20,000 nt of DNA from an uncultured virus (IMG/VR IMGVR_UViG_3300015371_000019) (IMGVR_UViG_3300015371_000019); one strand, 5' to 3'; shown: positions 1 through 20,000, numbered from the stretch's first letter. Made by a program: numbers and translations. The notes: a model not told the origin generated them from the letters alone.

Positions 1-374
1 AGCCGGACCACGATATCGTCGGCCGAGCGATCCTCCCCGTCCTCCGTCACCTCCCACGGGAAAACAATCCATTGACCGTGGACGTGGGGAGGATCCAGAT
101 AGTCGGTGAGGGCTAGAAAGGGAGCCTTCGGGAACCGCTGCCGGTAGCGATCCCGTGTCGCCCCACTGTCCACAATATCATCAACAATGAAGTCCGCCTC
201 CGATGCGTGCTCCACCTCCATTAACTTATTGCTCGCCTTGCCGCAAAGTCTGGCCACCTCGGTGCCTCCACGCGGGACACCATACACACGAAACCCGTTG
301 AAGATCTCCTCGTCCTTAATCAGCCGGTGGACGGCCTTCATGCAATCCGCTTGGCTTAGAATCCTTTTATCCAT
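1..374 (-). CDS. Type I phosphoribosyltransferase domain protein (xanthine-guanine PRT-like), partial; possibly an N-terminal fusion to GTP cyclohydrolase I
   Basis: Not in the ORF track. Manual translation from ATG 374 gives MDKRILSQAD...VYGVPRGG...FIVDDIVDSGATR...WIVFPWE-VTEDGEDRSADDIVVR. It has the PRPP-binding loop VDDIVDSGAT and the GxPRGG and WIVFPWE motifs, and it stays open to the window edge. Confidence 0.8.
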   Translation of the reverse strand, partial: MDKRILSQADCMKAVHRLIKDEEIFNGFRVYGVPRGGTEVARLCGKASNKLMEVEHASEADFIVDDIVDSGATRDRYRQRFPKAPFLALTDYLDPPHVHGQWIVFPWEVTEDGEDRSADDIVVR

Positions 375-419
375 AATTGTCTTCGTTCAAAACCGCGTTT
401 GTCTTCGCTTTTCCGGCGT

Positions 420-1115
420 TTAGTATCCCTTCCTCAGGTCCCCGCCGAGGGGAACTAAGACTTGCGTGCGGGCGTCCCGACTATCCACCCGGTAAGGTTT
501 GTGAATCTGCCACCCGGCCCGGAACCGTCCCCGGCCTTCCTTGACCGCGTCACTGATCGCTCCAAGCGTCACGGGATCCTCCCGGTGTCCCCACTCAGGG
601 TGGAGCCAAATCGGGGCGTGTAGCTTCCCCTCCTTCATACTGAACACTTCTCCAATAGCATCGGAGTAGTACTTGATGTCCGACGGCTGTTCAACGATCA
701 CCTTGAACTCGTGGGCCCTCTGGACGTTCTCCCTCAGCGGCATCCTCCACTTCTTCGGGGACAGGGTAATCCAATCAATAGTCCCCCTGATCGGGAACGT
801 CCCGCTCGTCTCGAGGTGGATCCGGCACGCCAACTCCTCAGTCAGCTCGGTCAGGTCATGGACGGCCGGCTCACCCCCGGTGATGACGACGAAGTCCACC
901 TCCGGCCCGTCCCGGTGCTCCTGGACGAGCTGCGCCACGGGTATCCGCTCGACGTGTTGCGGGACCCAGGAAGGATGCCAAGTCCCGGCGCTATCACACC
1001 AAGGGCATTGGACCGGACACCCGAAGGTGCGGATGAAGAAGGCCGGGCAACCCATATACACACCCTCCCCTTGGAAGGTGTGGAACCGTTCGTGGATGGG
1101 AAGTGGGAAGCTCAT
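420..1115 (-). CDS. queE: 7-carboxy-7-deazaguanine synthase (radical SAM)
   Basis: Motifs ERFHTFQGEG, FIRTFGCPVQCPWCDS (CxxxCxxC), VITGGEP, HLETSG, WITLSPK and QIHK. Start placed at ATG 1115, which overlaps the queD stop (ATGA). Confidence 0.92.
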   Translation of the reverse strand: MSFPLPIHERFHTFQGEGVYMGCPAFFIRTFGCPVQCPWCDSAGTWHPSWVPQHVERIPVAQLVQEHRDGPEVDFVVITGGEPAVHDLTELTEELACRIHLETSGTFPIRGTIDWITLSPKKWRMPLRENVQRAHEFKVIVEQPSDIKYYSDAIGEVFSMKEGKLHAPIWLHPEWGHREDPVTLGAISDAVKEGRGRFRAGWQIHKPYRVDSRDARTQVLVPLGGDLRKGY

Positions 1116-1615
1116 TCGTGTCGATAGGTTGCCCGGTTCTTGGAGTCCTCCCAACAAACGACCTCCACCACAAGCAGGCCCCGCTCCTTTGCTCCGGGGA
1201 CCTGCTTGGTCACGATCCCTTGAACTTCCTCAAACACCCACTTCGCCAATCCCTCCATCCCGCAGTTGGGGACGAACACTATCTTTGCGACCGGAGACTG
1301 CACCGTCTCAGTATCCTCCTCCCCTACCCCGCCGGGCGTAACCTTGAGCTCCGATGTGAGCCCGGCGACAAGATATTCCAACCGCGGATCGTCCGAGTTG
1401 AGGAGAAGGGTGTGGTCGAAGCTCTCCACGAGGAAGGCCTTCACTTCCTCCAACTTGCCCACGTCCACCACGAAGCCATTCTCATCTAGGAAATTACACC
1501 CGAAGGTTATATCGAAGGCGAAATTATGACCATGAATGAGTCGGCAGTGGCCATCGTGATTGGGTTGTCTATGAGCTGCTGGTAAGTCCCGGTAGGATTT
1601 GGTTACTGTGTTCAT
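1112..1615 (-). CDS. queD: 6-carboxy-5,6,7,8-tetrahydropterin synthase
   Basis: Motifs AAHR...GHCRLIHGHN, GFVVDVG, FDHTLL and a C-terminal WED. Adjacent to queE. Confidence 0.92.
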   Translation of the reverse strand: MNTVTKSYRDLPAAHRQPNHDGHCRLIHGHNFAFDITFGCNFLDENGFVVDVGKLEEVKAFLVESFDHTLLLNSDDPRLEYLVAGLTSELKVTPGGVGEEDTETVQSPVAKIVFVPNCGMEGLAKWVFEEVQGIVTKQVPGAKERGLLVVEVVCWEDSKNRATYRHE

Positions 1616-9006: not shown

Positions 9007-9377
9007 TGGACGGCAGGGGTGGAGGGTTTCACGGCATATTCGGACGCTTCTTCCTTCTTCAAATCGGCGATCGCATAGTTGGCGGACCACAACCCGCGGG
9101 ATCCTTTGCCCTTGCGGTCGTAGTCCATCCGGGTGTTGATCGAAACGGTCATCCGGCCGAAGCGCCGGTCGGTGTTCCGGAAGCTCACGAAGACGTGGGC
9201 GTATCGGATAACCGCACCCCGGTGCATCTCGACCGTCTTGGACAGGCAAACCAGGACCGAGAACGGACGGGCGCCCGGAACACCAAGGCGTTGGGCGGTG
9301 ACTTCGCGGGTCCAGCCCGCAGCTACGGCGCGGCGGATCAACTCCACCGCTTGTTTTTTTGATGCAATGTTGCTCAT
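9003..9377 (-). CDS. Hypothetical cassette protein (124 aa)
   Basis: ATG fixed by repeat copy R1. Confidence 0.7.
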   Translation of the reverse strand: MSNIASKKQAVELIRRAVAAGWTREVTAQRLGVPGARPFSVLVCLSKTVEMHRGAVIRYAHVFVSFRNTDRRFGRMTVSINTRMDYDRKGKGSRGLWSANYAIADLKKEEASEYAVKPSTPAVQ

Positions 9378-9407
9378 ATGGGTATGTATTAGCGGGTTAT
9401 AGGCCCA

Positions 9408-9629
9408 TCACTTCTGGGAAGCGGTGGCTCCGACGTGTTTGTTGTAAAGTTCTTGGGCCTTGGACCGGTCGCGGGTTTCCACGATCACGACCGTGTGGCC
9501 GACGGGGTAAACACCCACAACCGGGACCAGCAACGGACGGTTGAACCGTTTGAGGGCCATGTTAAGGGTGTGGATGTCCGGGGACGTTTCCCAGGTCAGC
9601 ACTTCGTATTTGATTTCGGTTTTGTTCAT
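9408..9629 (-). CDS. Hypothetical cassette protein (73 aa)
   Basis: Starts at R2 and ends ...SQK* inside R1. Confidence 0.75.
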   Translation of the reverse strand: MNKTEIKYEVLTWETSPDIHTLNMALKRFNRPLLVPVVGVYPVGHTVVIVETRDRSKAQELYNKHVGATASQK

Positions 9630-9649
9630 ATGGTTCCTATAAGCGGATG

Positions 9650-9856
9650 TTAGGCCCGTCTCAGGGCGGCGATCGCACCCGCGATCGCGGTGAGTCGGTC
9701 GAGACGGTCCTCCGGGGTGATGACTTGGACCATCTCCCGTTTGCCCGTCGCCGTCCGGCGGATCTCGGTGTAACCCGATCGGGTGGCTTCGCTAACGACC
9801 TCCACCCGGCCTTCCCGGATCGCCCGGGCCAAACTTGCTTGTGTCATTGTCTTCAT
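9650..9856 (-). CDS. Hypothetical cassette protein (68 aa)
   Basis: Starts at R3; stop lies inside R2. Confidence 0.75.
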   Translation of the reverse strand: MKTMTQASLARAIREGRVEVVSEATRSGYTEIRRTATGKREMVQVITPEDRLDRLTAIAGAIAALRRA

Positions 9857-9896
9857 ACTTGTGATATAAGCGGGTTAAAGGCCCACTCAAAATTGA

Positions 9897-10088
9897 TCAG
9901 CACCCTTTCCAGGAGGCCCGTCCCGCATACGGGTAATCCGTTCCTTTACCCAGTTTTGTGGCGGCCTCGAGGGCTTCACTCCGGTCGCTGGCTTCCACAT
10001 CCACCGACATCCACATCCCCCGTCCGGCCGGATCTGCGTGCATACGGACCGTCCATGTCCTTCTCATTGTTGTGATCGTTTTCTTCAT
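9897..10088 (-). CDS. Hypothetical cassette protein (63 aa)
   Basis: MKKTITTMRRTWTVRM..., with ATG 10088 fixed by R4. Confidence 0.7.
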   Translation of the reverse strand: MKKTITTMRRTWTVRMHADPAGRGMWMSVDVEASDRSEALEAATKLGKGTDYPYAGRASWKGC

Positions 10089-10440
10089 ACTCGTGATATA
10101 AGCGGGTCGCAGGCCCATTACTTCTGGGAAGTCCGGTGACCATCTCGTTCCCGATCTTGCGGGCGGCGGCGAGGGCCCCGTCCCGGGCGAAGTCCTCCGG
10201 GCCCATCGGGAGGCCGAGGACTTCCCGGAGCCACGGGAACGTCTTGATATTGTTAGGGGTAAACTGGAGGGTGTCCCGGCGGCGGCGGATGTAATCCTTG
10301 AGCAAGGCCACCTGGCGCTTAGGACCGGGCCGGCCCGCACCGTAATCCGCCAGGAGGAAGTTCACCGGCTCGTTCCCGACCAGGAGGGTCAAGGAGTGCC
10401 CCGTCATTAACAGCGTTGCATTTTGTTTCATATTTGACAT
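9976..10440 (-). CDS. Hypothetical cassette protein that reads out of frame through R4 (probably truncated or rearranged)
   Basis: ATG 10440 is fixed by R5; an in-frame alternative ATG is at 10500. The ORF misses the TAA in R4 and overlaps the next gene. Confidence 0.55.
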   Translation of the reverse strand: MSNMKQNATLLMTGHSLTLLVGNEPVNFLLADYGAGRPGPKRQVALLKDYIRRRRDTLQFTPNNIKTFPWLREVLGLPMGPEDFARDGALAAARKIGNEMVTGLPRSNGPATRLYHEYEENDHNNEKDMDGPYARRSGRTGDVDVGGCGSQRPE

Positions 10441-10497
10441 ACGGGTTCTATAAGCGGGTCGTTGGCCCATCGTTCTTGCGAATCGTTCGTTTACCAT

Positions 10498-10584
10498 CAT
10501 GCCGTAATATAACCCGGTCCTGGATCCCGTCAACGTCCCAATTCTATATTTTTAGAATTATCTTCTGGACCATCCCGGTGGACC
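10498..10584 (-). promoter_or_regulatory. Sigma70-like leaderless promoter module P1 with upstream palindrome and TGGACC repeat pair
   Basis: TTGACG (10528-10533), 16 bp, TATATT (10506-10511), 5 nt, ATG. Palindrome AATTCTA-N6-TAGAATT at 10540-10559. TGGACC-N7-TGGACC at 10566-10584. Confidence 0.65.
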
Positions 10585-10645
10585 GCCGGGCCGGATTCTT
10601 GGCCATGCCATCGTAGTGCCATTTCCAAGCCGCCGGTGGACCATC

Positions 10646-12961
10646 TTACTGGACCACCGGGTTCCCGGCCGGGGCCTTCTCCAGCCCGGCCACATCCACC
10701 GGGGCGGCGGGAGCCAATCCTTTCCGGCCGGCATTGAGCTGGATCCGGATCGTATTGTCCGCCACCGTTGCCCCGATCCGGTTGAGGACGGCCCGGGTCC
10801 GCTTGAAGTCCCACCCGGCTACTCCACAGGCCCGGATGATTGCCACGGCGGAGTGTCCCCCGAAGGCGGCCGGCGTCGAGCGGGTCCGCTTCAACGGACC
10901 GGGTGTGCCCTTGGCTTCCTTGCCCGACTTGGACGGGGTGAGGCCCAAGCGGGTCCGGAGATCCACCGGGAGCTGCCGGTAATACTTGCGGAGCATCTTC
11001 AGCGCCACGGCCACTTGGCGGGGCGTGAGGGTGGCTTGAGCGGCCAAGGACTTTCCGTAGGCGGTGTCCATAGCGTTGAACCCGGCTTCATCCTTCCGAC
11101 GGGCCCCGTCGCACATCCCGGCCAGGATCTTGAGGGCTTGGTGGGTGTCGGTAATGACCTCAGCGGGTAGGGCCGGATCCTTCCGCGGCTTCATACCGGG
11201 TTCCTTCGGTCCGCCTTCTTCCTCCGGGTGGACGACCGGGATGATGGGCGATCCGGCCGCGGGTTGCGGTTGCGGCTCCGGGATGTCCTTGATGATTTCC
11301 TCCGGCCGGTTCTCGTTGAGCTTCAGGTCCCCGTCGTTCAGCAAGTCGATGCGGCCGATCTTCTCCCGGACTTGATCGCAGATCCGCTCCTCGATGGTCT
11401 TCGCGGCGAAGAAAATCCGTTGGAGGGATTTGACCCCGCCGGCCCGGTGGACCCGGCCGAGGGCTTGCTTGAGGTCCTGGCCACTCCAGGTCGGACAAAT
11501 GATTGCGAGGCGCATCCGTTTCCCGGGTGAGCCGTGGAGGGATACTCCGACGCCGCCGGCCTTGATGTTGCAGATGATGATCTTCTCCCGGTCCTCTTGG
11601 AACCCTTGGATGTTGTTCTCGCGGACCGTATCGGATTGCCCGCCCCGGATCACACACTCGGTTTTGAGCTTGGCCACGAGCGCGTCGGCCGACTCATCAA
11701 AGTTCACGAAGATCGCCACGGACATCCCTTCCTCGACGGCATCTTGCGCCATCGCGGCGATCGCCGGGACCTTGAGGATCTCGGCCTTCTGGCGGGCCCG
11801 GAGCATTGCGACCAGGATGCAGGCCCCGGTGTCCGCGTTCATCCGTTCCTGGAGGCGGGCGATCTCGTCCTTCATCTCGTCGTACACCGCATTGATCTTG
11901 GACTCGTTCCCGTTCGTGTCGTAACACTCCGCCGTGATTTGAGTCTCCGGGAAAGCGTTGCCGAGGTCGGCGATCCGAACGCGGGTCCCGTGGAGCGGAA
12001 AGATCTCCCGGTGGATGTGGTTGAGTTCCTCCACCCCGCCTTCAAAGCTCATGCCCCAACGACCCTTCTTGCAAGCGTGCGATTGGGCCCACGCCCAGAA
12101 TCGCTTCTCCGGGAAGCAACCCGTCAGGAACCCGCTGAACTTCATCTGGAGCGGGTTGTCCGCAGCCGTGGCCGAAAGCCCGATCACCATGTACTTCTGG
12201 CGGATGGCGGAAAGGCCGAGGGCACAATTCCAAGTCCGGTGATCCTTCAGCCGGTGGCACTCGTCGAAGATGATGATCGTGGTCGGATCCAAGTGCCATT
12301 GGAAGTCCTCGTTCTTGCCCTCGCCGACGATCCGGACGGCGGCTTGCTCACCCCGGCGGAGGAGCTCGTAGTTGCAAACGAAAATGCTCATCCCGAAATG
12401 AGCGGCGGCCCGTTTCCAGCTCGGCCGGACGGCCTTCGGGCAAACGACGTACACCGGGCGATTAAGGATGAAGGCGGCGGCGAGACTCGCGTAAGTCTTC
12501 CCGGTTCCCGTGTCGGACGCGTCGAGGGCCCCGTTATAGGTCGAGAGGGCTTTGACGAGCCGGCGGACCGAAGGGATCTGGAACGGGAGGAGTTTCTTCT
12601 CGATGAGCTTGAACCGGGCGTACTGCTCGGCCGTGAGCTTGGCGTGCTTACCCTCGAGGGCTTCCTTGAGCTCGAGCCGTTCCTCTTCCCGGCGGAGCCG
12701 CTCGGCTTCGACCACGGCGGGATCCAGCGGGAGCCACCAAAGGATTTCATACACGGGCAACCCGGCGTCGTCGTGCTTGACGTATTTGACGGTGATCCCG
12801 GCGGACCGGAGGGCTTCCCGGTTTGCGTTCCAGGTGTCCCAAAAGGAGTGCCCCCGCTCGGCCGGGGCCTTGCGGAGCATTCGGTCGCCGTTCTTCGTGG
12901 CGACCCGGACGGGTGCCGTCCACGGGAGGATTGTTTCGAGGTTGATATTCATATTTGACAT
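10646..12961 (-). CDS. SNF2-like SF2 helicase with C-terminal accessory domains (771 aa)
   Basis: Motifs DTGTGKT, IFDECH, LSAT, KAGGVGVSL and QALGRVHRAGG, followed by a Pro-rich linker, a CDGA...GFN..D...GKSLA segment and a terminal ~55-aa domain. ATG fixed by R6. Confidence 0.85.
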   Translation of the reverse strand: MSNMNINLETILPWTAPVRVATKNGDRMLRKAPAERGHSFWDTWNANREALRSAGITVKYVKHDDAGLPVYEILWWLPLDPAVVEAERLRREEERLELKEALEGKHAKLTAEQYARFKLIEKKLLPFQIPSVRRLVKALSTYNGALDASDTGTGKTYASLAAAFILNRPVYVVCPKAVRPSWKRAAAHFGMSIFVCNYELLRRGEQAAVRIVGEGKNEDFQWHLDPTTIIIFDECHRLKDHRTWNCALGLSAIRQKYMVIGLSATAADNPLQMKFSGFLTGCFPEKRFWAWAQSHACKKGRWGMSFEGGVEELNHIHREIFPLHGTRVRIADLGNAFPETQITAECYDTNGNESKINAVYDEMKDEIARLQERMNADTGACILVAMLRARQKAEILKVPAIAAMAQDAVEEGMSVAIFVNFDESADALVAKLKTECVIRGGQSDTVRENNIQGFQEDREKIIICNIKAGGVGVSLHGSPGKRMRLAIICPTWSGQDLKQALGRVHRAGGVKSLQRIFFAAKTIEERICDQVREKIGRIDLLNDGDLKLNENRPEEIIKDIPEPQPQPAAGSPIIPVVHPEEEGGPKEPGMKPRKDPALPAEVITDTHQALKILAGMCDGARRKDEAGFNAMDTAYGKSLAAQATLTPRQVAVALKMLRKYYRQLPVDLRTRLGLTPSKSGKEAKGTPGPLKRTRSTPAAFGGHSAVAIIRACGVAGWDFKRTRAVLNRIGATVADNTIRIQLNAGRKGLAPAAPVDVAGLEKAPAGNPVVQ

Positions 12962-12990
12962 ATGGGTTGGTTAAGCGGGTTGCTGGCCCA

Positions 12991-13212
12991 TCAAAGGTGG
13001 GAAAGTCCTTGGGACTTGAAGAGGTCCATCGTCGCGTCCCGTTGGAGCCCGGTGAGCTGCCCCCAATCGGCGGAAGCCCAACGGTCCGCCAAGGCGGTCC
13101 AATGGGGATGTCTCATTGTTGCATCCGTCCGGATCAGGGCAAGGCGCTCGGCTTTGCTCATACGGTCCCACCTGTATCCGGCCGGCCCGACGTTTTTCGT
13201 GTTCTTACTCAT
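12991..13212 (-). CDS. Hypothetical cassette protein (73 aa)
   Basis: Starts at R7 and ends SHL* inside R6. Confidence 0.75.
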   Translation of the reverse strand: MSKNTKNVGPAGYRWDRMSKAERLALIRTDATMRHPHWTALADRWASADWGQLTGLQRDATMDLFKSQGLSHL

Positions 13213-13253
13213 GGGTATGTATTAGCGGGTCGTAGGCCCACCAGGTTTGAGAA

Positions 13254-13541
13254 TCACTCCGCGGCCCATCCGCCCACAAGCCAATACTCCTCGGTGGCCG
13301 TTTTAACGGTAACGGCGAGGACCGGGCCCCACTTCTCGGTGTTTTCCCAAATGTAATCCTCGGCGGCGTCCCGGTCCTTGAAAACCTGGGAGGACGTTTT
13401 GATCCCGCGGGTTGTGGAGATGGTCCCGTTGTATTGGTCCTGCCCGTATTCGCGGGTTGCCCCGTCCACGGCGGCCCGATACCACTTGGTGAGGTCGGTG
13501 CCCTTGGTTACTTTGAATCCTCCGATGTTCGTTGCGCCCAT
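13254..13541 (-). CDS. Hypothetical phage protein (95 aa)
   Basis: EYGQDQYNGTIST...KWGPVLAV...GGWAAE. Lies downstream of R8 behind an A-rich leader; its stop abuts R7. Confidence 0.75.
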   Translation of the reverse strand: MGATNIGGFKVTKGTDLTKWYRAAVDGATREYGQDQYNGTISTTRGIKTSSQVFKDRDAAEDYIWENTEKWGPVLAVTVKTATEEYWLVGGWAAE

Positions 13542-13589
13542 ATTCTCGTTTGTGTTAATTGTTTACCGTCGGGTATGTATAAGCGGGTG

Positions 13590-13850
13590 TCAGGCCCGTT
13601 TCCGTTTGAGAACTTGCTTGGCGTCGAGTTGGGCGGAGTAGGTGCGCCCGTGCGTTTCGTGGACCACCGAGGCCCGGCCCGCTTCGTAGGCGGCCTCGAG
13701 CGCGGCTTTGATCTGCCAAACTGCTTGATCGCTAAAGTCGAGCCCGTCGGAACGGCGGGTGTCGAGGGTTTCCAAATGGAGGGTTTCGCGGGCGATCCCG
13801 AGGAGGGTCGCGTCCCGGCCCGTTGTTTCGTTTTTGTTCATGTTCTTCAT
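13590..13850 (-). CDS. DUF6900-like protein (86 aa)
   Basis: IARETLHLETLDTRRSDGLDFSDQAVWQIKAALEAAYEAG is the recognised pattern. ATG 13850 fixed by R9. Confidence 0.75.
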   Translation of the reverse strand: MKNMNKNETTGRDATLLGIARETLHLETLDTRRSDGLDFSDQAVWQIKAALEAAYEAGRASVVHETHGRTYSAQLDAKQVLKRKRA

Positions 13851-13881
13851 ACGAGATGATATAAGCGGGTCGCAGGCCCAT

Positions 13882-14247
13882 TCATTTTGGGAAAGAGTCC
13901 ACTTCGACGGTCCACGGGTTCCCGCAGGAGGATCCGTTGTTGTAACGGACGCTGATCCCGCCGGCCTGGGCCCGGAAGGCATCGGCCTCTTCCTTTGTAG
14001 CGAACGTTCGTATGGTCCGGGCGGCGGGCGGAGTAAGCGGGTTGCCGGATCCGACTTGGACCGCCATCCCGCGGAAGATCCCACGGTCCTTCATAAAGGC
14101 CTTGGCTTCCTCCTCGGTGGCAAACCGGGTGGACTTCCTAAGGTTGAGGGTGGATTTGAACCCGGTCGGAGGAGCGTCCACGACCATCCGGCCCGAGGGT
14201 TGGAGCATTATTGCCCAGGTGATTGTTCGTTGTTTCATTTTTGTCAT
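13882..14247 (-). CDS. Hypothetical cassette protein with an internal duplicated FATxEEAxAF motif (121 aa)
   Basis: Starts at R10 and ends FPK* in R9. Contains RFATEEEAKAF and TFATKEEADAF. Confidence 0.75.
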   Translation of the reverse strand: MTKMKQRTITWAIMLQPSGRMVVDAPPTGFKSTLNLRKSTRFATEEEAKAFMKDRGIFRGMAVQVGSGNPLTPPAARTIRTFATKEEADAFRAQAGGISVRYNNGSSCGNPWTVEVDSFPK

Positions 14248-14277
14248 ACGGGTTGATATAAGCGGGTCGCAGGCCCA

Positions 14278-14679
14278 TTACTTCTGGGAAACGAGGTAGG
14301 TGGTCCAATTGTCCCCGCCGTTGATATCCCGCCAAACTTCCCACCGGGTCGCCTCCGGCCAACCCGGTTTCTTGAGCAACTTCTTCAGCCACCCGACCGC
14401 CTTCCCGGCGGACGTGAAGGACCCGTTCGTGTAGGGCCCGTGTCCCCACGGATCCATCCTCCACCCGGCGGCCTTGCGCTTGTTCCATTCCTCGACGGTG
14501 AGGGCGGAGTCCACGACTTCGATCGTATGGACGGCGGCGAGCCCCTGGACCGGATGCTCTTTGACCTTGCCCACGGCCCGGAGCAGATCCAGGGTGGAGG
14601 CGTTGAAAAGCTTCGAGGACGCGATCACCCCGGCGGCGGCGATCCCCGCCTCGATTGTGTCTTTGATCGGGTTGCTCAT
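14278..14679 (-). CDS. Hypothetical protein (133 aa)
   Basis: ATG 14679 lies 1 nt after the upstream stop. Ends SQK* in R10. Confidence 0.7.
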   Translation of the reverse strand: MSNPIKDTIEAGIAAAGVIASSKLFNASTLDLLRAVGKVKEHPVQGLAAVHTIEVVDSALTVEEWNKRKAAGWRMDPWGHGPYTNGSFTSAGKAVGWLKKLLKKPGWPEATRWEVWRDINGGDNWTTYLVSQK

Positions 14680-14680
14680 G

Positions 14681-15049
14681 TTAATCCGTTCCCTCGAAGT
14701 GATGGGTGTGCTTGTTCCCGTCCCGGACGGTGACCAGGATCCCGTGGGAGGTTTTGCTCGCAATGTCCTTGTCCCCAATGCCCCAACCGAGGTTGTAAAT
14801 CTCGATTCGGTGCTTGGCGGCATAAGCAACGTGGGCGTCCGTCATCCGCATTTCCTCGAGCTGGTTCACGTCCTCGTCCGGGGAGAGGATGTCCTCCGAC
14901 GGGAGGGCTGTGGACTCCGCCCGGATCTCGCGTTTGCCGTCGTTCCAAATCTTCCGGACCCGCTTGTCGTGGGCGATTGCTTGGGCCCGGTCCGCGAACG
15001 GGCCGACGAACATGCCCGCAACGTTGGAGTGGATGTAATAGTGTTTCAT
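14681..15049 (-). CDS. Hypothetical protein (122 aa)
   Basis: Separated by 1-nt gaps from both neighbours. Confidence 0.7.
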   Translation of the reverse strand: MKHYYIHSNVAGMFVGPFADRAQAIAHDKRVRKIWNDGKREIRAESTALPSEDILSPDEDVNQLEEMRMTDAHVAYAAKHRIEIYNLGWGIGDKDIASKTSHGILVTVRDGNKHTHHFEGTD

Positions 15050-15050
15050 A

Positions 15051-15212
15051 TTAGTTGACGCGTTTGGTTACCCGGAGGCCGTCCGCCGAAAGGTAAGTGT
15101 GGGTGATTATGACGGATCCACGTTTGGATACGGTGCGGGAGACGGTGACGTCCACCCACCCCCACTGCTCGCAGACCCGGAAGGTTGTTTCGTTTTTGTT
15201 CATGTTCTTCAT
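15051..15212 (-). CDS. Small hypothetical cassette protein (53 aa)
   Basis: Not in the track. MKNMNKNETTFRVCEQWGWVDVTVSRTVSKRGSVIITHTYLSADGLRVTKRVN*. ATG fixed by R11; stop lies 1 nt before the next ATG. Confidence 0.7.
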   Translation of the reverse strand: MKNMNKNETTFRVCEQWGWVDVTVSRTVSKRGSVIITHTYLSADGLRVTKRVN

Positions 15213-15242
15213 ACGAGATGATATAAGCGGGTTGCTGACCCA

Positions 15243-15698
15243 TTATTTGTGGGAAACGGCTTCGGCCTTCGTCCGATACACGGCGACCATCTTCCGGCCG
15301 GATCCTTTGTTCCACCGGGCCCACTCTTTAAGGGCAATCGCCCGGGCAACCTCTTCGCTCCGGGTCCAGGTCCAAATCTCGAAGGCCTCGACGGCCCGTA
15401 AGTCGTTGACCGTGTAGAACATAAATTGCTTGAGGATGCCCTTGTCCGGCACCGGGCGTTCGGCCGGGACGCAGGACCGGATCTCCGCCAACTGCCCGTC
15501 CGTCAACGGGGCGGGTTCGCCCCGCTCACCGAGCCGGCCGGCCGATTGCTGGGCCCGGATGGTCGCGTCCGCCACGGCGATCCCGGCTTTGGCCAGGAAG
15601 GCCCTAATGGTTTGAAATTCAATGTGCTCCCGACCGCACCGGCGGATCACCGCCGTGGGAGCGAACCCGAACACCGTTTGTTTCTCGTTTGTTACCAT
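15243..15698 (-). CDS. Hypothetical cassette protein (151 aa); N-terminal domain homologous to the C-terminus of the 771-aa helicase
   Basis: Starts at R12 and ends SHK* in R11. Contains FG...AVIRRCG...VADATIRAQ..AGR. Confidence 0.8.
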   Translation of the reverse strand: MVTNEKQTVFGFAPTAVIRRCGREHIEFQTIRAFLAKAGIAVADATIRAQQSAGRLGERGEPAPLTDGQLAEIRSCVPAERPVPDKGILKQFMFYTVNDLRAVEAFEIWTWTRSEEVARAIALKEWARWNKGSGRKMVAVYRTKAEAVSHK

Positions 15699-15731
15699 AT
15701 ACGAGTGATATAAGCGGGTTCGTGGCCCGTC

Positions 15732-15833
15732 CTAGCCGAGAAAAGTAAGGGCGACCCATAGGAGGGCATAGGCCCCGATCCCGATGGAGGCGAGCTTTAC
15801 TTTAATGTCTAACATGTTGATATGGTGGATCAT
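15732..15833 (-). CDS. Putative single-pass membrane peptide (33 aa)
   Basis: ATG 15833 overlaps the upstream stop (ATGA). Hydrophobic stretch LASIGIGAYALLWVALTFLG. Stop lies inside R12. Confidence 0.5.
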   Translation of the reverse strand: MIHHINMLDIKVKLASIGIGAYALLWVALTFLG

Positions 15834-16090
15834 AGACCCTTGAATTGGTGGTCGAGTTCGATCTGCCGCTTTTGGAAGTCCTCGGCCCGACCAATGTTCT
15901 CTTTCCAGCTGAACGAGTAACCGTTCCAGGTGGTCCATTGGACCACGCTCGTAAACCGGTCCTCTCCCCGGCCGAACCGGGCCAAGATGATTTTACCCGG
16001 CTCGATGACCTCCGTCACCGTCCCGGTGAGCCGGTTGCCCGACTCAAACGTGACCTTTACTTTATCACCGACTTTAACATTTTCGTTCAT
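15830..16090 (-). CDS. Small beta-rich (KOW/SH3-like) protein (86 aa)
   Basis: VKVGDKVKV...TGTVTEV. ATG 16090 fixed by R13. Confidence 0.7.
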   Translation of the reverse strand: MNENVKVGDKVKVTFESGNRLTGTVTEVIEPGKIILARFGRGEDRFTSVVQWTTWNGYSFSWKENIGRAEDFQKRQIELDHQFKGL

Positions 16091-16124
16091 ACGGGTTGAT
16101 ATAAGCGGGTTAGAGGCCCGTCGT

Positions 16125-16358
16125 TTACGAGAACCACGAGTTGAGGACACCCTCGACCGGGCCACCGGACTCGGGTTTGGTTTGGTCGGACATGCCGACC
16201 ATGAGCTCGAGCTCGGCCCGGGCCGTCCGGCTTAATTGGTTGTCGAGCAGGGCGAACCGGAGGGCTTTATGGAGGATGGCCATTTGGATACCGGACAGCT
16301 CAATGGTGAACGCCCGCGGGTGTAATTTGATTGTTTGTGTTTTCGAATTTTTACTCAT
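16125..16358 (-). CDS. Hypothetical protein (77 aa), first gene of the cassette block
   Basis: ATG lies 5 nt after the -10 box of promoter P2. Stop lies inside R13. Confidence 0.7.
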   Translation of the reverse strand: MSKNSKTQTIKLHPRAFTIELSGIQMAILHKALRFALLDNQLSRTARAELELMVGMSDQTKPESGGPVEGVLNSWFS

Positions 16359-16444
16359 GCGCTAATATGGCCCCGGCTTGATATCCCGTCAACACCGGGT
16401 TCTCTAAAATTTTAGAATAATCTGCTGGACCATCGGGATGGACC
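16356..16444 (-). promoter_or_regulatory. Sigma70-like leaderless promoter module P2 (paralog of P1)
   Basis: TTGACG (16387-16392), 17 bp, CATATT (16364-16369), 5 nt, ATG. Perfect palindrome TCTAAAATTTTAGA at 16403-16416. TGGACC-N7-TGGACC at 16426-16444. Confidence 0.7.
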
Positions 16445-16491
16445 TTCGGAGGGTCCCGACGGACCGGGAAGGCATGGAAAAGGTAGTGCCT

Positions 16492-17349
16492 TTACATAGC
16501 CACAAATCGGCGGAGCCGGGCGAGCTCCCGGTCGTCCATCGTCCCGGGATCGTCGGACCGGGAATTGAGGAGGACCGTCCGGCCGGGTAGGGCACCGAGC
16601 TCCCCGGCCAACCTCCGGGCAACGTGGCCGGCGTCCCGGTCCAGAAGGATGAACCGGCGGGGCACTTGGGCGATCAGCCGGACCTGGGCCGGGGTATAAG
16701 CAGAGCCGAACAGGGCGCCCGCTCCGGGCCCGATCCTCCACACATCCGCGGGACCCTCGACCACAACGATTGAATCCCGGACGAAGTCCAACCCGTAGAT
16801 CAAGTCCTTGATCGGGGTGGCTTCTTCCTCCGGTGCGGCGGAGATGTACCGTGGCTGGGCCTTCCCGACGGCCCGGGTTGTCCACGATACCCGTTGCCCG
16901 CGGAACAGGACCGGGATGTAAAGTCGCCACGGGAGGACCGGGAGCAGACCCAATCCCTCCAGGCCCCACATCCGCTCCAGCTCCAGCGCGTCGAACCCGC
17001 GGCCCTTGAGATATCGTCGGTGGACGGGAAGCAACGGGCCCCGGCCGGCGGGTTCCTTCAACCGGCCGGCCACCTTCTCCCGGACCTCACGGACCGGGCG
17101 GACCTCCCAGAAGGACCGGATCCTCTCCTCCGGCACCCTCCAGAGGGTAAGGACTTTCCGGGCAGGCATCCACCCACATCTCCAACAATGAAAGTAACGG
17201 CCGGCGAGGTTGAACCCTAGGTGGAACTTATTGGAACCCGGCCCGCAGGACGGGCAGTCGAGTTGGAGCCAGCCTTCGCGGGCATGCCGGTGGCCTCCCT
17301 CGACGAAAGGGACCTTCCATTCCCGGAACATTTCCTGGGCTGAATCCAT
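16492..17349 (-). CDS. DNA primase (zinc-binding domain plus TOPRIM)
   Basis: CPSC...FHCWRCG zinc ribbon. TOPRIM motifs VVVEGPADV, LLDRD and DDPG. Confidence 0.85.
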   Translation of the reverse strand: MDSAQEMFREWKVPFVEGGHRHAREGWLQLDCPSCGPGSNKFHLGFNLAGRYFHCWRCGWMPARKVLTLWRVPEERIRSFWEVRPVREVREKVAGRLKEPAGRGPLLPVHRRYLKGRGFDALELERMWGLEGLGLLPVLPWRLYIPVLFRGQRVSWTTRAVGKAQPRYISAAPEEEATPIKDLIYGLDFVRDSIVVVEGPADVWRIGPGAGALFGSAYTPAQVRLIAQVPRRFILLDRDAGHVARRLAGELGALPGRTVLLNSRSDDPGTMDDRELARLRRFVAM

Positions 17350-17370: not shown

Positions 17371-18723
17371 TCAACGATTCCTTCCAAGGCCGCGTAGTAG
17401 CTCGTCAAACACGTCCAAGTCTGTCGAACGCGCTTTCCCGTCCAAGACTGCGTCGAGTATCGAAGCCTTGCGCTTTAATATCTTCATGAGCTTCTCCTCC
17501 ACGGTGTCGATGGCGACCAAATAGTAAATGAGGACCGGGTGCTTCTGGGTGATGCGGTGCGTCCGGTCCTCTGCTTGGAGGAGGTCGCCCGGTGTCCAAG
17601 GGAGGTCGAAGAAGAAGGTCCGCCAGGCCGCCGTCAAAGTGATGCCCGTCCCGGCGGCCTGGAGGTTGCCGAGGAGGAGCCGGATCCGCTTGTTCGTTTG
17701 GAAAGCCCGGTGGACGGTTTCCCGGTGCCGCCCAGTCACCCGGCCGTCGAGGATAACCGCGCGGTGACCATACTCCTTGTAAAGGGTATCGACGACGAAG
17801 GTGTGCCGGGTAAAGCCCACGATCTTCTCCCGCGGGTTGGCCTCGAGGAGATCGTCAATCCACCCCTTCGCTTGGTCGAGCTTGAGCTTGGCGACGAGCC
17901 GGAGCAGATACCCGATGCGGGTGAGGGCCTGGCTGCGAGCTGCCCGTAAGGCCCGGGCTGGGCTGATGGACCGGAGCCAACCTAGGAAGTCCTGTTCTGC
18001 TTGGTCATACTCCTTCCGGTCCTCCAACCGGAATGGAACGACCTGTCGGGTTTTGGCCGGGAGCTCTGTCTGTACATCCTTTTTGAGGCGGCGGATCATA
18101 CAGGACTCCGCCAACAACCGGTTCAGCTGTTTCAGATCCTGAGCCCCGTCATACTTCCAGCCCCAAGGCGTCCACCGGGGAGCACAATACTTCCAAGCGT
18201 AATGACGGACGGAGGGAAAGAGGTCCGGGCGGATCATATGTAAGGCCGGCCACAATTCGATCGGCCGGTTCACCAACGGGGTGCCTGACAACCCGATGAC
18301 GGACGGGACACCGCGGGTTAAAGCTAGCGCGGCCTTCGTCCGTTTGGCCCGGAGGGACTTGCAGTAATGGACTTCGTCTATGATCACACACTCCGGCCTC
18401 AACCGGAGGAGGATCGGGAGCCAGCTGTGGAGGATGTCGTAGTTGATGATGTAGATGCCCCGCTTCGAGAGGGAATCACGGCCTCCGTTCCGCCCCTCGA
18501 GCACTTCAGTCCGTAGGTCGAAGTGGTCGGAGGCCTCCAGCTGCCACACATACTTCATGGAAGCCGGGGACACAATGATCACCGGGCGTCGGGTTGGAAT
18601 CTTCGTCACCCAGTAGAGGGCTTGGATTGTCTTGCCCAAGCCCATCTCATCGGCGAGTAAGGCCCGTCCACGAAACTGGTAGATCTGTTTGACGCCTTCG
18701 AGTTGAAAGGGTCGTAGCTTCAC
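17371..18723 (-). CDS. SNF2-family (HARP/SMARCAL1-like) helicase (450 aa)
   Basis: Motifs LRPFQ, LLADEMGLGKT, IIDEVH, LSGTPLVNRPIELW, MIRRLK, AAGTGITL and QAEDRTHRI. Confidence 0.92.
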   Translation of the reverse strand: MKLRPFQLEGVKQIYQFRGRALLADEMGLGKTIQALYWVTKIPTRRPVIIVSPASMKYVWQLEASDHFDLRTEVLEGRNGGRDSLSKRGIYIINYDILHSWLPILLRLRPECVIIDEVHYCKSLRAKRTKAALALTRGVPSVIGLSGTPLVNRPIELWPALHMIRPDLFPSVRHYAWKYCAPRWTPWGWKYDGAQDLKQLNRLLAESCMIRRLKKDVQTELPAKTRQVVPFRLEDRKEYDQAEQDFLGWLRSISPARALRAARSQALTRIGYLLRLVAKLKLDQAKGWIDDLLEANPREKIVGFTRHTFVVDTLYKEYGHRAVILDGRVTGRHRETVHRAFQTNKRIRLLLGNLQAAGTGITLTAAWRTFFFDLPWTPGDLLQAEDRTHRITQKHPVLIYYLVAIDTVEEKLMKILKRKASILDAVLDGKARSTDLDVFDELLRGLGRNR

Positions 18724-19331
18724 GATGCGCGAAACCGGGTGAGCAGGGCAGCACCCAGTTCCTGCACAGCTTGTTCAATACGGGTAGGGCATTCGACCTG
18801 ACGCTTCAGCTTGGCCTTGGCTTTCCTGAAGTGGGTGTGAGCCGTTCCCCGAAAGTCCTGCGGAATCTCCATTAGCAGTAATACCAGCTCCTGGCCGTCC
18901 TGGGAAAGCCCGGCCATGAGGTCCCATAACTCCGCTGGTGTTTCGTGTAACATCCGCCAGATTATCTGTCCGCAGTGTCGGGGCGGGGTGGAAGCGGATA
19001 GGACCGGGGTAGGTGGATCCTCGACGGCGACCTCCGGGAGGGTTTCAGCGAACTCGTAGTACACGATCTTCGCCGACCGTTTGGACTCCCGCATGATCCA
19101 GCTCTTCATTTGTTGGGTAACTACGAAGTGGCACCAGGAGGAGAACTTCATCTTGTGGCCCGTCCGGTACAGCCGGCACGCTTTCAGGAAGCACCAGTAA
19201 GCCTCGCTCTTAGCCTCCTCAAAGGTGACGGGGTACATTTGCGAATACCTCCAAGCAATCTTCCATAACATAGGCTGCACGTCCTTGAATACCTTGCGCG
19301 GGTTTAATCCGACGGCGGTCGATGATTTCAT
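18720..19331 (-). CDS. Sigma-70 region 2-like protein (putative phage sigma factor)
   Basis: MLWKIAWRY...FEEAKSEAYWCFLKACRLY....MKFSSWCHFVVTQQMKSWIMRE parallels sigma regions 2.1-2.4. No clear region 4 HTH is visible. Confidence 0.65.
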   Translation of the reverse strand: MKSSTAVGLNPRKVFKDVQPMLWKIAWRYSQMYPVTFEEAKSEAYWCFLKACRLYRTGHKMKFSSWCHFVVTQQMKSWIMRESKRSAKIVYYEFAETLPEVAVEDPPTPVLSASTPPRHCGQIIWRMLHETPAELWDLMAGLSQDGQELVLLLMEIPQDFRGTAHTHFRKAKAKLKRQVECPTRIEQAVQELGAALLTRFRAS

Positions 19332-19407
19332 AGTTTCATTTCACGGTGTCTTAGTTAGTTGGTTTTTAGCAACGGGGTAGGTTTAATATGCCAGCGTAGG
19401 TGGAATC

Positions 19408-19427
19408 AATTCTAAAATTTTAGAATT
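19408..19427. promoter_or_regulatory. Perfect 20-bp palindrome in the divergent intergenic region (putative operator)
   Basis: AATTCTAAAATTTTAGAATT, the third copy of the P1/P2 palindrome. Confidence 0.7.
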
Positions 19428-19467
19428 TTAGGGCCTCGTCCGGGGCCGCCGAAGATAATACGGTGCG

Positions 19468-20000
19468 ATGCTGAAACTTGAGTCATTACAACTGGAGAAC
19501 TTCCAATGCCATGGGAGGGTTGTCGTCGTCTTCTCTCCCACGATCACAACCATCAAGGGACCCTCCGACGTAGGCAAGTCCTCCATCCTCCGGGCCCTAG
19601 GTTGGGTTTGTCTCAACAACATACCCGGTGACGAGTTCATTAAGGAGGGGGAAAAGGAAACCACCGTCACCCTTACCCTCTCCGACGGGAAGGAGAAGCG
19701 GGTTATCGTCCGGCGGCGGGGCAAACACGACAACGCCTACGAGCTCGACGGGGAGGAGTACAAGGCCTTCGGGCAGGATGTCCCACCCGACATCCGGGAC
19801 CTGCTCCAACTCAACAATATCAACTTCCAGAACCAACATGACAGTCCGTTTTGGTTCAACGAGTCAGCCCCGGAGATCTCGCGGAGGCTGAACGCCGTGG
19901 TGGACCTAACCGTGATTGATACGGCCCTCTCCAACATCGCGGCGTCGGTCCGCCAAGCCCAAGAGAGGGTCGCCCTCACCGACGAGCGGCTGGTGGAGGC
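19468..20000 (+). CDS. SbcC/Rad50/SMC-like ATPase, partial
   Basis: Not in the track because it runs off the window. MLKLESLQLENFQCH...IKGPSDVGKSSILRAL (Walker A)...INFQNQHD (Q-loop), then the start of a coiled coil. Confidence 0.88.
   Translation, partial: MLKLESLQLENFQCHGRVVVVFSPTITTIKGPSDVGKSSILRALGWVCLNNIPGDEFIKEGEKETTVTLTLSDGKEKRVIVRRRGKHDNAYELDGEEYKAFGQDVPPDIRDLLQLNNINFQNQHDSPFWFNESAPEISRRLNAVVDLTVIDTALSNIAASVRQAQERVALTDERLVE

Follow-up and report, generated by a model that had tools for sequence, protein, structure and literature searches.

Results

The window analysed here, i.e., the whole 20,000-nucleotide (nt) stretch of the uncultured virus IMGVR_UViG_3300015371_000019, is a portion of a tailed phage genome. 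Its positions 9375-16133 hold an array of small genes, all on the minus strand, and a conserved element of the pattern TTCYCR-N7-YGGGCC-N4-ACCCGCTWATA is repeated 13 times among them. The order along the minus strand is a divergent control region (about 19385-19470), the gene for a sigma factor, an SNF2-type helicase (17371-18723), a primase-like protein (16492-17349; both assigned by Pfam and PHROG searches), the array itself, and genes of replication and DNA modification. The array region comprises 6.8 kb of small open reading frames (ORFs) together with one helicase-type protein of 771 amino acids (aa). For scans over the genome of this phage we joined two IMG/VR records, G001 and G002, into a composite of 46,239 bases; both are collinear with the window, share 99.99-100% identity with it over the common parts, and extend both of its flanks. 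CheckV puts the completeness of each 23-kb record at 31%, and an identical sigma gene is present on a further contig of 72,880 bases; hence, roughly 27 kb of the genome is unseen.

With at most two mismatches allowed, the full 34-nt pattern has ten matches, all on the minus strand, while 200 shuffles gave a mean and a maximum of zero. The core GGG[C/T]C-N4-A[C/T]CCGCT[A/T]A is found on the minus strand in all 13 copies, starting at 16119, 15728, 15241, 14276, 13879, 13597, 13239, 12989, 10468, 10116, 9884, 9657 and 9406; these starts serve below as names of the copies. None of the 13 deviates from the N4 spacing, and the block TTCYCR-N7 precedes the core in 10 or 11 of them. A weight matrix of 40 columns, built from the 13 copies and run over both strands of the composite, gave 28-60 bits at these sites and -1 at the next best site on either strand; no further copy appeared, in particular none in the replication genes downstream of the last one. 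Among the 10-mer families of the composite, that of the element is repeated most often. Since the matrix separates the copies cleanly and no shuffle matches, we consider the array real, non-random and limited to positions 9375-16133 of the window. The original prediction of 13 co-oriented copies with an invariant N4 spacing is thus confirmed, and the element is restricted to a 6.8-kb early region of a phage with its own sigma gene.

Along the minus strand, copy 1 (16088-16133; 47.5 bits) reads TTCTCG-N7-CGGGCC-N4-ACCCGCTTATAT and is followed, 8 nt later, by the ATG of an 86-aa ORF; the stop codon of the upstream 77-aa ORF, with the ending FS*, lies inside it. Copy 2 (15696-15742; 44.0 bits) contains the upstream stop LG* and leads a 151-aa ORF. 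Copy 3 (15210-15255; 55.2 bits), a GGGTC variant containing the stop SHK*, leads a 53-aa ORF, and two further ORFs come before copy 4 (14245-14290), which has the best score (60.2 bits), contains SQK* and leads a 121-aa ORF. The ORF after copy 5 (13848-13893; 56.6 bits) has 86 aa and belongs to DUF6900; after copy 6 (13539-13611; 40.0 bits) an A/C-rich leader of 35 nt separates the element from the ATG of a 95-aa ORF. Copy 7 (13210-13253; 43.7 bits), a TAATAC variant, leads a 73-aa ORF, and copy 8 (12959-13003; 46.7 bits), a TTAACC variant, leads the 771-aa protein (ResIII, DEAD and Helicase_C; DNA helicase in PHROG). Copy 9 (10438-10482; 45.5 bits) stands 32 nt past ATG 10500, a leaderless start of sigma70 type in the same frame, and leads a 154-aa ORF, inside which, in another frame, lies copy 10 (10086-10130; 55.9 bits) with a 63-aa ORF of its own. 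TTCYCR is missing from copy 11 (9854-9898; 37.9 bits), which leads a 68-aa ORF, and from copy 12 (9627-9671), an ATCCGC variant and the weakest of all at 28.1 bits, before a 73-aa ORF. Copy 13 (9375-9420; 51.9 bits) leads a 124-aa ORF.

The ATG stands 6-9 nt past the 21-nt core, i.e., 12-15 nt past ACCCGC, in 12 of the 13 copies and 35 nt past it in copy 13597; the context R-T-ATG is found in 11 of the 12 close copies, and a second in-frame ATG at codon 4 in 6 of the 13 genes. The motifs GGAGG, GAGG, GGAG and AGGA do not occur within 17 nt before the ATG in 12 of the 13 copies; only the copy at 9629 has AGGA, 2 nt away. Both the distance and the missing Shine-Dalgarno sequence had been predicted, and both are borne out; GGAGG precedes 5 of 20 other genes of the phage. 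Taking TATATC or its variants as a -10 hexamer places the A of the ATG 6th to 9th among the bases that follow the hexamer in 12 of the 13 copies. This interval is the usual window of start-site choice for holoenzymes of the sigma70 family. In their first 30 nt, the 13 genes led by the element contain 37-60% A, compared to 21-28% over the whole genes, as one would predict for ribosomes that have to load on a 5' end free of structure. Similar A/C-rich leaders put the ATG at a distance of 35-47 nt both in copy 13597 and in the second copy on a related contig described below; thus, the element itself is not a ribosome-binding feature.

In-frame stop codons of upstream ORFs (at least 30 aa) lie inside the element in 9 of the 13 copies (FS*, LG*, SHK*, SQK*, FPK*, RA*, SHL*, RA* and SQK*), and 15-17 nt before the core in two more. 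Such an overlap had been proposed for eight copies; the overlap holds, although the count is nine and the SQK* at copy 10116 is out of frame with any ORF of at least 30 aa: the ORF from ATG 10440 passes through this copy and ends at 9976. The units between the copies had been described as unrelated ORFs of 53-771 aa. Proteins of 53 aa and of 771 aa are indeed present; however, a unit holds one to three ORFs, and two ORF pairs have segments in common. At the cut-offs used, Pfam and PHROG give no match for 9 of the 13 element-led ORFs, a clear match for two and a weak one for two.

Residues 702-748 of the 771-aa protein (10646-12961) align with residues 11-57 of the 151-aa protein (15243-15698) at 47% identity (E 6e-8), so that, judging by this alignment, a small domain is common to the two cassettes. 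A 34-aa ORF with a hydrophobic segment (15732-15833) overlaps the stop of the 86-aa ORF (ATGA) and ends inside copy 2; in this frame a start that gives a longer ORF is possible at 15938.

Together, TTCCCA and TGGGCC make up a short inverted repeat, CCCA-N7-TGGG, with its centre about 32 nt before the ATG, and in the alignment of the copies the two that have CTCG carry the matching partner CGGG. TATAT(C) is the sole A/T-rich block, in surroundings of 60% G+C. The element had been called structured, and a hairpin was considered and rejected: with RNA folding parameters, the 13 copies have minimum free energies of -5.3 to -11.3 kcal/mol, within about two standard deviations of mononucleotide shuffles, and no secondary structure is common to the copies. 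Rfam gave no family match, the only hit (mir-1468, E 0.19) being at chance level. Terminator-like sites were not found on the minus strand at the copies, and the element has no T-run.

A scan of the window with the sigma70 consensus returned six sites, where 5.5 were expected, and none is at an element. The two best have the form TTGACG-N16/17-(T/C)ATATT, are separate from the elements and are linked to a palindrome. One, at 16361-16417 on the minus strand, is TTGACG-N17-CATATT, and the other, at 10503-10557 on the same strand, is TTGACG-N16-TATATT. In both the ATG follows the -10 box after 5 nt; hence, the phage uses leaderless starts elsewhere. A third, promoter-like site (19385-19425, minus strand) combines the palindrome TTCTAAAATTTTAGAA with TTGATT...TGgCATATT before the sigma gene; the related locus L119 conserves it fully, the surrounding matches being about 78-81% identical.

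The 16-bp AT palindrome TTCTAAAAWTWTAGAA has three copies, at 19410-19425, 16402-16417 and 10542-10557, each beside a sigma70-type promoter, and these are the only ones in 46 kb. In front of the sigma gene it overlaps the -35 region and sits between divergent genes. This palindrome is probably the operator of an early-gene regulator. Besides this lineage, the palindrome-promoter pattern was found only in unrelated AT-rich phages. Two of the palindrome promoters are preceded by a conserved block, GGCACTAC...ATGGCC...GGTCCA-N7-TGGTCCA (16425-16500 and 10565-10640), which recurs at positions 1-95 of the contig L078, considered below. The leaderless start at ATG 10500 is in frame with ATG 10440, giving a long form of 174 aa instead of 154 aa; copy 10468 would therefore be translated in the 174-aa form. 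The ORF at 9976-10500 of the window overlaps the gene 10088-9897 in a different frame.

The sigma gene (18720-19331, minus strand) encodes 203 aa (Pfam Sigma70_r2, E 4e-8; sigma factor in PHROG) and is located 2.6 kb upstream of the array, behind the promoter-like site with the 16-bp palindrome. The N-terminal half of the protein matches region 2 of RpoD in a profile comparison (E 2e-4); its residues differ from those of RpoD at the positions that we take to read the -10 box. A structure model built on seven homologues has a mean predicted local distance difference test (pLDDT) score of 71. In a fold search with this model all 50 matches shown were sigma chains, mostly within RNA polymerase complexes, with weak E-values of 2e-3 to 0.1. 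The phage itself thus encodes a factor of the sigma70 family, as promoters read by a phage sigma presuppose. Compared with cultured phages, the protein has no match; as a query for loci of relatives it retrieved L119 only. Further homologues of the sigma are P0004-P0008.

One diverged relative that covers the array was found, L078, a metagenome contig of 1,887 bases with two copies of the element, in both of which every core position is kept. The first copy lies in a 61-nt island of 84% identity and is nearest to copy 9884; the second, with its leader, forms an island of 55-57 nt and is nearest to copy 13597. The rest of the DNA similarity between L078 and the window is confined to three genes, homologues of those at 14247-13882, 7888-7679 and 7392-7230; the genes directly after the two copies lack counterparts in the window. 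In L078 the homologue of gene 14247 comes after a 13597-type copy, whereas in the window gene 14247 precedes one, and the homologue of gene 7888 follows after about 500 nt, compared to 6 kb in the window. The three shared genes stand in a different order in L078. G001 and G002 keep the order of the window.

Similar mosaics are seen within the array. The similarity of copies 15241 and 13879 sets in 15 nt before the core (two differences there) and becomes identity over 37 nt after it, including 12 shared codons (11 of 12 residues), beyond which their genes are unrelated; copies 14276 and 10116 are identical over 37 nt, namely 14 nt before the core, the 21-nt core and 2 nt after it. Such mosaics are what recombination would leave behind if it used the copies as homology, and they lend some support to an exchange like that at the promoter-stem-loop (PeSL) elements of T4-type phages, without proving it. 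In contigs of four DNA sequencing runs we found neither joints between copies nor variants, at a depth of about 4-5, with short contigs and low power. A search for RNA runs containing positions 9300-16500 gave none.

Other searches for relatives were as follows. The DNA has no match in 50,697 phage records, and the motif scan of IMG/VR returned only the two near-identical records. The metagenome motif scan gave at least 100 stretches; nearly all of the 100 listed are single chance hits, and those with multiple copies among them are the same phage and L078. Among 185,579 representative genomes the motif gave seven single hits in unrelated metagenome-assembled genomes, with no tblastx similarity and no array. 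Three small proteins of the array and its flanks, used as queries, yielded no new relatives. The primase search led to 42 distant loci (21-42% identity), in which repeated 9-mers are tandem or coding repeats and the element matrix finds nothing above 18 bits. The literature check covered related concepts rather than this consensus itself, and we do not claim that it is absent from print.

Discussion

We presume, with a probability of roughly 0.55, that each element is a middle-type promoter specific to the phage, giving leaderless mRNAs or mRNAs with a 2-nt leader, that it is probably read via the phage sigma factor, and that the recombination patches are a by-product. In such a mechanism the A/T block TATAT(C) would be the -10 region, and transcription would start either with the A of the ATG itself or 2 nt earlier, at a purine, so that every unit of one to three small genes would be expressed from its own mRNA of this kind. 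The A-rich, unstructured first codons would help the expression of leaderless mRNAs. The upstream blocks ACCCGC, YGGGCC and TTCYCR would stand in for the normal -35 box and be read by a factor specified by the phage, most likely the sigma of 18720-19331, which would itself be made from a sigma70-type early promoter. The 13 near-identical patches of 40-45 nt would at the same time provide homology for recombination that adds, removes and reorders small genes.

We infer promoter activity, the start site and the identity of the reading protein from sequence features. The proposal that the element is an expression signal gains support in this indirect way. All 13 copies are co-oriented with the genes and stand right before their starts, with none elsewhere in 46 kb; the TATA-like block is at a -10 distance from the ATG; leaderless sigma70-type starts occur in the same window, while the element-led genes miss the Shine-Dalgarno sequence and have A-rich first codons. 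Further, the element is not a ribosome-binding feature, a sigma gene is located upstream, and the core is kept in L078 despite the other genes there. The simplest reading would be that a phage sigma made early redirects the host polymerase to 13 private promoters.

Several observations weigh against this interpretation. With TATATC as the -10 box, YGGGCC is 11 nt and TTCYCR 24 nt upstream, which does not fit a standard -35/-10 arrangement; an equally regular geometry is TTCYCR-N17-ACCCGC, which would put the start about 7 nt ahead of the ATG. The Shine-Dalgarno core is also missing in about 11 of 20 other genes, so its lack before the element-led genes is weak evidence. The C-terminal helical half of the sigma protein matches no region-4 family. 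So far the sigma gene and the element are seen together in this phage only: L119 has the sigma gene and ends before the array, and L078 has the array and no sigma region. The sigma factor could, moreover, serve late promoters outside the 46 kb seen.

The element may instead be kept mainly as a PeSL-like exchange point, recombination between its copies moving cassettes of a promoter plus an ORF without known relatives, possibly via small circles; this is compatible with a promoter role, and we hold it as a tentative alternative. PeSLs act so in T4-type phages (PMC2839356; PMC4122927). As described there, they resemble the element as short, repeated, co-oriented motifs flanking small genes, mostly of unknown function, in a variable early region, as homology islands between otherwise unrelated genes of relatives, and as providing each cassette with its own promoter. 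The array, too, is a variable region beside small genes without known relatives, and its gene content differs in L078, with which it shares only the islands of about 60 nt and three reordered genes. The flanks that the copy pairs 15241/13879 and 14276/10116 share end abruptly, copy 10116 is out of frame inside an ORF, tails encoded by the element close the upstream proteins at nine of the 13 copies, and nine element-led ORFs are without a Pfam or PHROG match. However, the array is covered by one diverged relative only, G001 and G002 are collinear with the window and nearly identical to it, and no joints were found in the contigs of the four runs, whose depth of about 4-5 gives low power. Besides, functional promoters would stay conserved beside fast-changing genes under any mechanism of recombination. 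The claim of the original prediction that the element is an exchange point is accordingly retained in part, on the islands, the abrupt flanks and the out-of-frame copy.

The same claim had been worded as an analogy to integrons or to PeSLs. The first finds no support: no integrase or recombinase family was recognized among 34 + 31 ORFs over 46 kb of an incomplete genome, and no attC-like fold or conserved hairpin was found (GTTRRRY cores were not searched with a tool). The second is the better analogy, with a limit. In PMC2839356 and PMC4122927, a PeSL consists of a promoter of sigma70 consensus, an AT-rich region upstream of it and a stable G/C stem-loop that acts as terminator, and mini-circles are demonstrated. 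In contrast, the element has no sigma70 geometry, stable hairpin or T-run, overlaps the upstream stop, and would start the next gene without a leader. Since it has neither the sigma70 consensus nor the terminator stem-loop, we do not count it among the PeSLs.

Another explanation, somewhat less likely still, is that the elements are promoters not read by the phage sigma: either the host polymerase with its main sigma is assisted by a phage activator bound to CCCA-N7-TGGG or to GGGCC-N4-ACCCGC, or a single-subunit RNA polymerase is responsible. MotA/AsiA at the middle promoters of T4 and cII at PRE of lambda are precedents for the activator. The inverted repeat, centred about 32 nt before the ATG, is in place for an activator replacing the missing -35 box, and CTCG in two copies is accompanied by its partner CGGG; on the other hand, 2 of the 13 copies lack the inverted repeat yet retain the core, and no activator family was recognized among the 65 ORFs scanned. 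A T4 middle promoter consists of a MotA box at -30 and a sigma70 -10 box. The element is similar in having a -10-like block and, in place of the -35 box, a conserved box about 11 nt upstream; it differs in the sequence of this box and in the additional upstream block, and no relative of MotA or AsiA was recognized.

As for a single-subunit polymerase, the promoters of the T7 class likewise show extended conservation up to a TA(T)A just before a possible start, which the conserved stretch of the element, with TTATA at its end, recalls, and PMC3950665 gives TGGGC, ACCCG and TAA, in the same order, for the promoter of Syn5; the roughly 27 kb of unseen genome could also accommodate the polymerase gene. 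The Syn5 blocks, though, are spaced differently (5 and 2 nt fewer), the N4 and N7 gaps of the element are variable in sequence, and RNA_pol (PF00940) has no match in the 46 kb of G001 and G002, though the control genomes gave no signal either. The sigma gene placed directly before the array is a simpler candidate than either an activator or such a polymerase.

The sigma-read promoters that we prefer have a counterpart in the phage SPO1, whose gp28 is a phage sigma factor for middle promoters. Systems of this type (PMC13401047) similarly combine an early phage sigma gene near a promoter set with a consensus unlike that of the host. The differences are that the element has three to four blocks over about 36 nt, that its mRNAs are predicted to be leaderless, and that the link between sigma and promoter is here drawn from sequence. 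By analogy, the element would work most like a PeSL or a middle promoter read by a phage sigma.

It is quite improbable that the elements are sites of a regulator blocking or tuning transcription, with no promoter activity of their own, in the manner of the stoperators of Cluster A mycobacteriophages. Asymmetric and of one orientation, the copies resemble the stoperators of PMC9283540 also in occupying short gaps and extending over stop codons. Stoperators are 13-bp sites found genome-wide and bound by the immunity repressor, while the element is three times as long and its copies stay within 6.8 kb of the 46 kb; neither a repressor nor an integrase was recognized among the 65 ORFs, and the fixed 6-9 nt distance to the ATG and the TATA-like block would be left unexplained.

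Least probable of all is a translation-start signal like the start-associated sequences (SAS/ESAS) of Cluster K mycobacteriophages, which, in PMC3203893, are also asymmetric repeats in a single orientation, limited to the non-structural half, a few nt before an ATG, with upstream stops inside, an optional upstream inverted repeat and an outer GGG-N7-CCC symmetry, but which are 13-bp repeats with a Shine-Dalgarno core, AGGAG, 3-7 nt from the start, whereas the element has a TATA-like end and no such core, its ATG distance varies from 6 to 35-47 nt, and most of it would be outside the mRNA if transcription starts downstream of it.

A broader proposal joins these parts: in a siphovirus-type soil phage, an own sigma would read a long, multi-block promoter whose sequence doubles as the final codons and stop of the gene before it, the next mRNA starting at the ATG. 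With promoter, preceding stop and ATG start all supplied by the element, an ORF dropped between two copies by recombination would be expressed at once, without a ribosome-binding site or terminator; the arrangement would be PeSL-like, independently evolved and insulated from host transcription. As a whole, and including the type of phage, we consider this proposal doubtful.

Should the promoter reading be confirmed, the element would present a new phage promoter consensus together with a candidate sigma, a pair that might be put to use for orthogonal expression. Beyond the T4-type phages, it would add a second and independent example of gene cassettes bounded by promoters, here on leaderless mRNAs, which would suggest dense arrays of private promoters as a general phage way to hold and exchange small accessory genes. 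The annotation of starts and transcription units in uncultivated soil phages would benefit as well; gene callers based on the Shine-Dalgarno sequence likely misplace starts there.

Additional observations

The array is followed by genes for DUF6011, DUF2786, DnaD-like, DnaB-like, QueD and QueE proteins (Pfam, PHROG), and further downstream in the composite by a DpdA-like transglycosylase, a sliding clamp, a family-A DNA polymerase, a clamp loader, MazG and a gp32-like protein; tape measure, tail-tip and other tail genes lie upstream. No tRNA genes were detected. The DNA runs that contain the phage are rhizosphere metagenomes, and the tail-tip protein is closest (43%) to that of a Janthinobacterium phage, with other phages of Gram-negative hosts also among its matches.

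The QueD-like, QueE-like and DpdA/queuine-transglycosylase-like genes are at window positions 3-1615 and at L117:3962-4996; judging by these genes, the phage DNA probably carries a 7-deazaguanine modification. A gene for a 496-aa hybrid histidine kinase/response regulator (HATPase_c, Response_reg) is found amid the tail genes in G002 (L115:5736-7226), and a protein with a prepilin-type N-methylation motif is encoded near it (L114:9667-10044).

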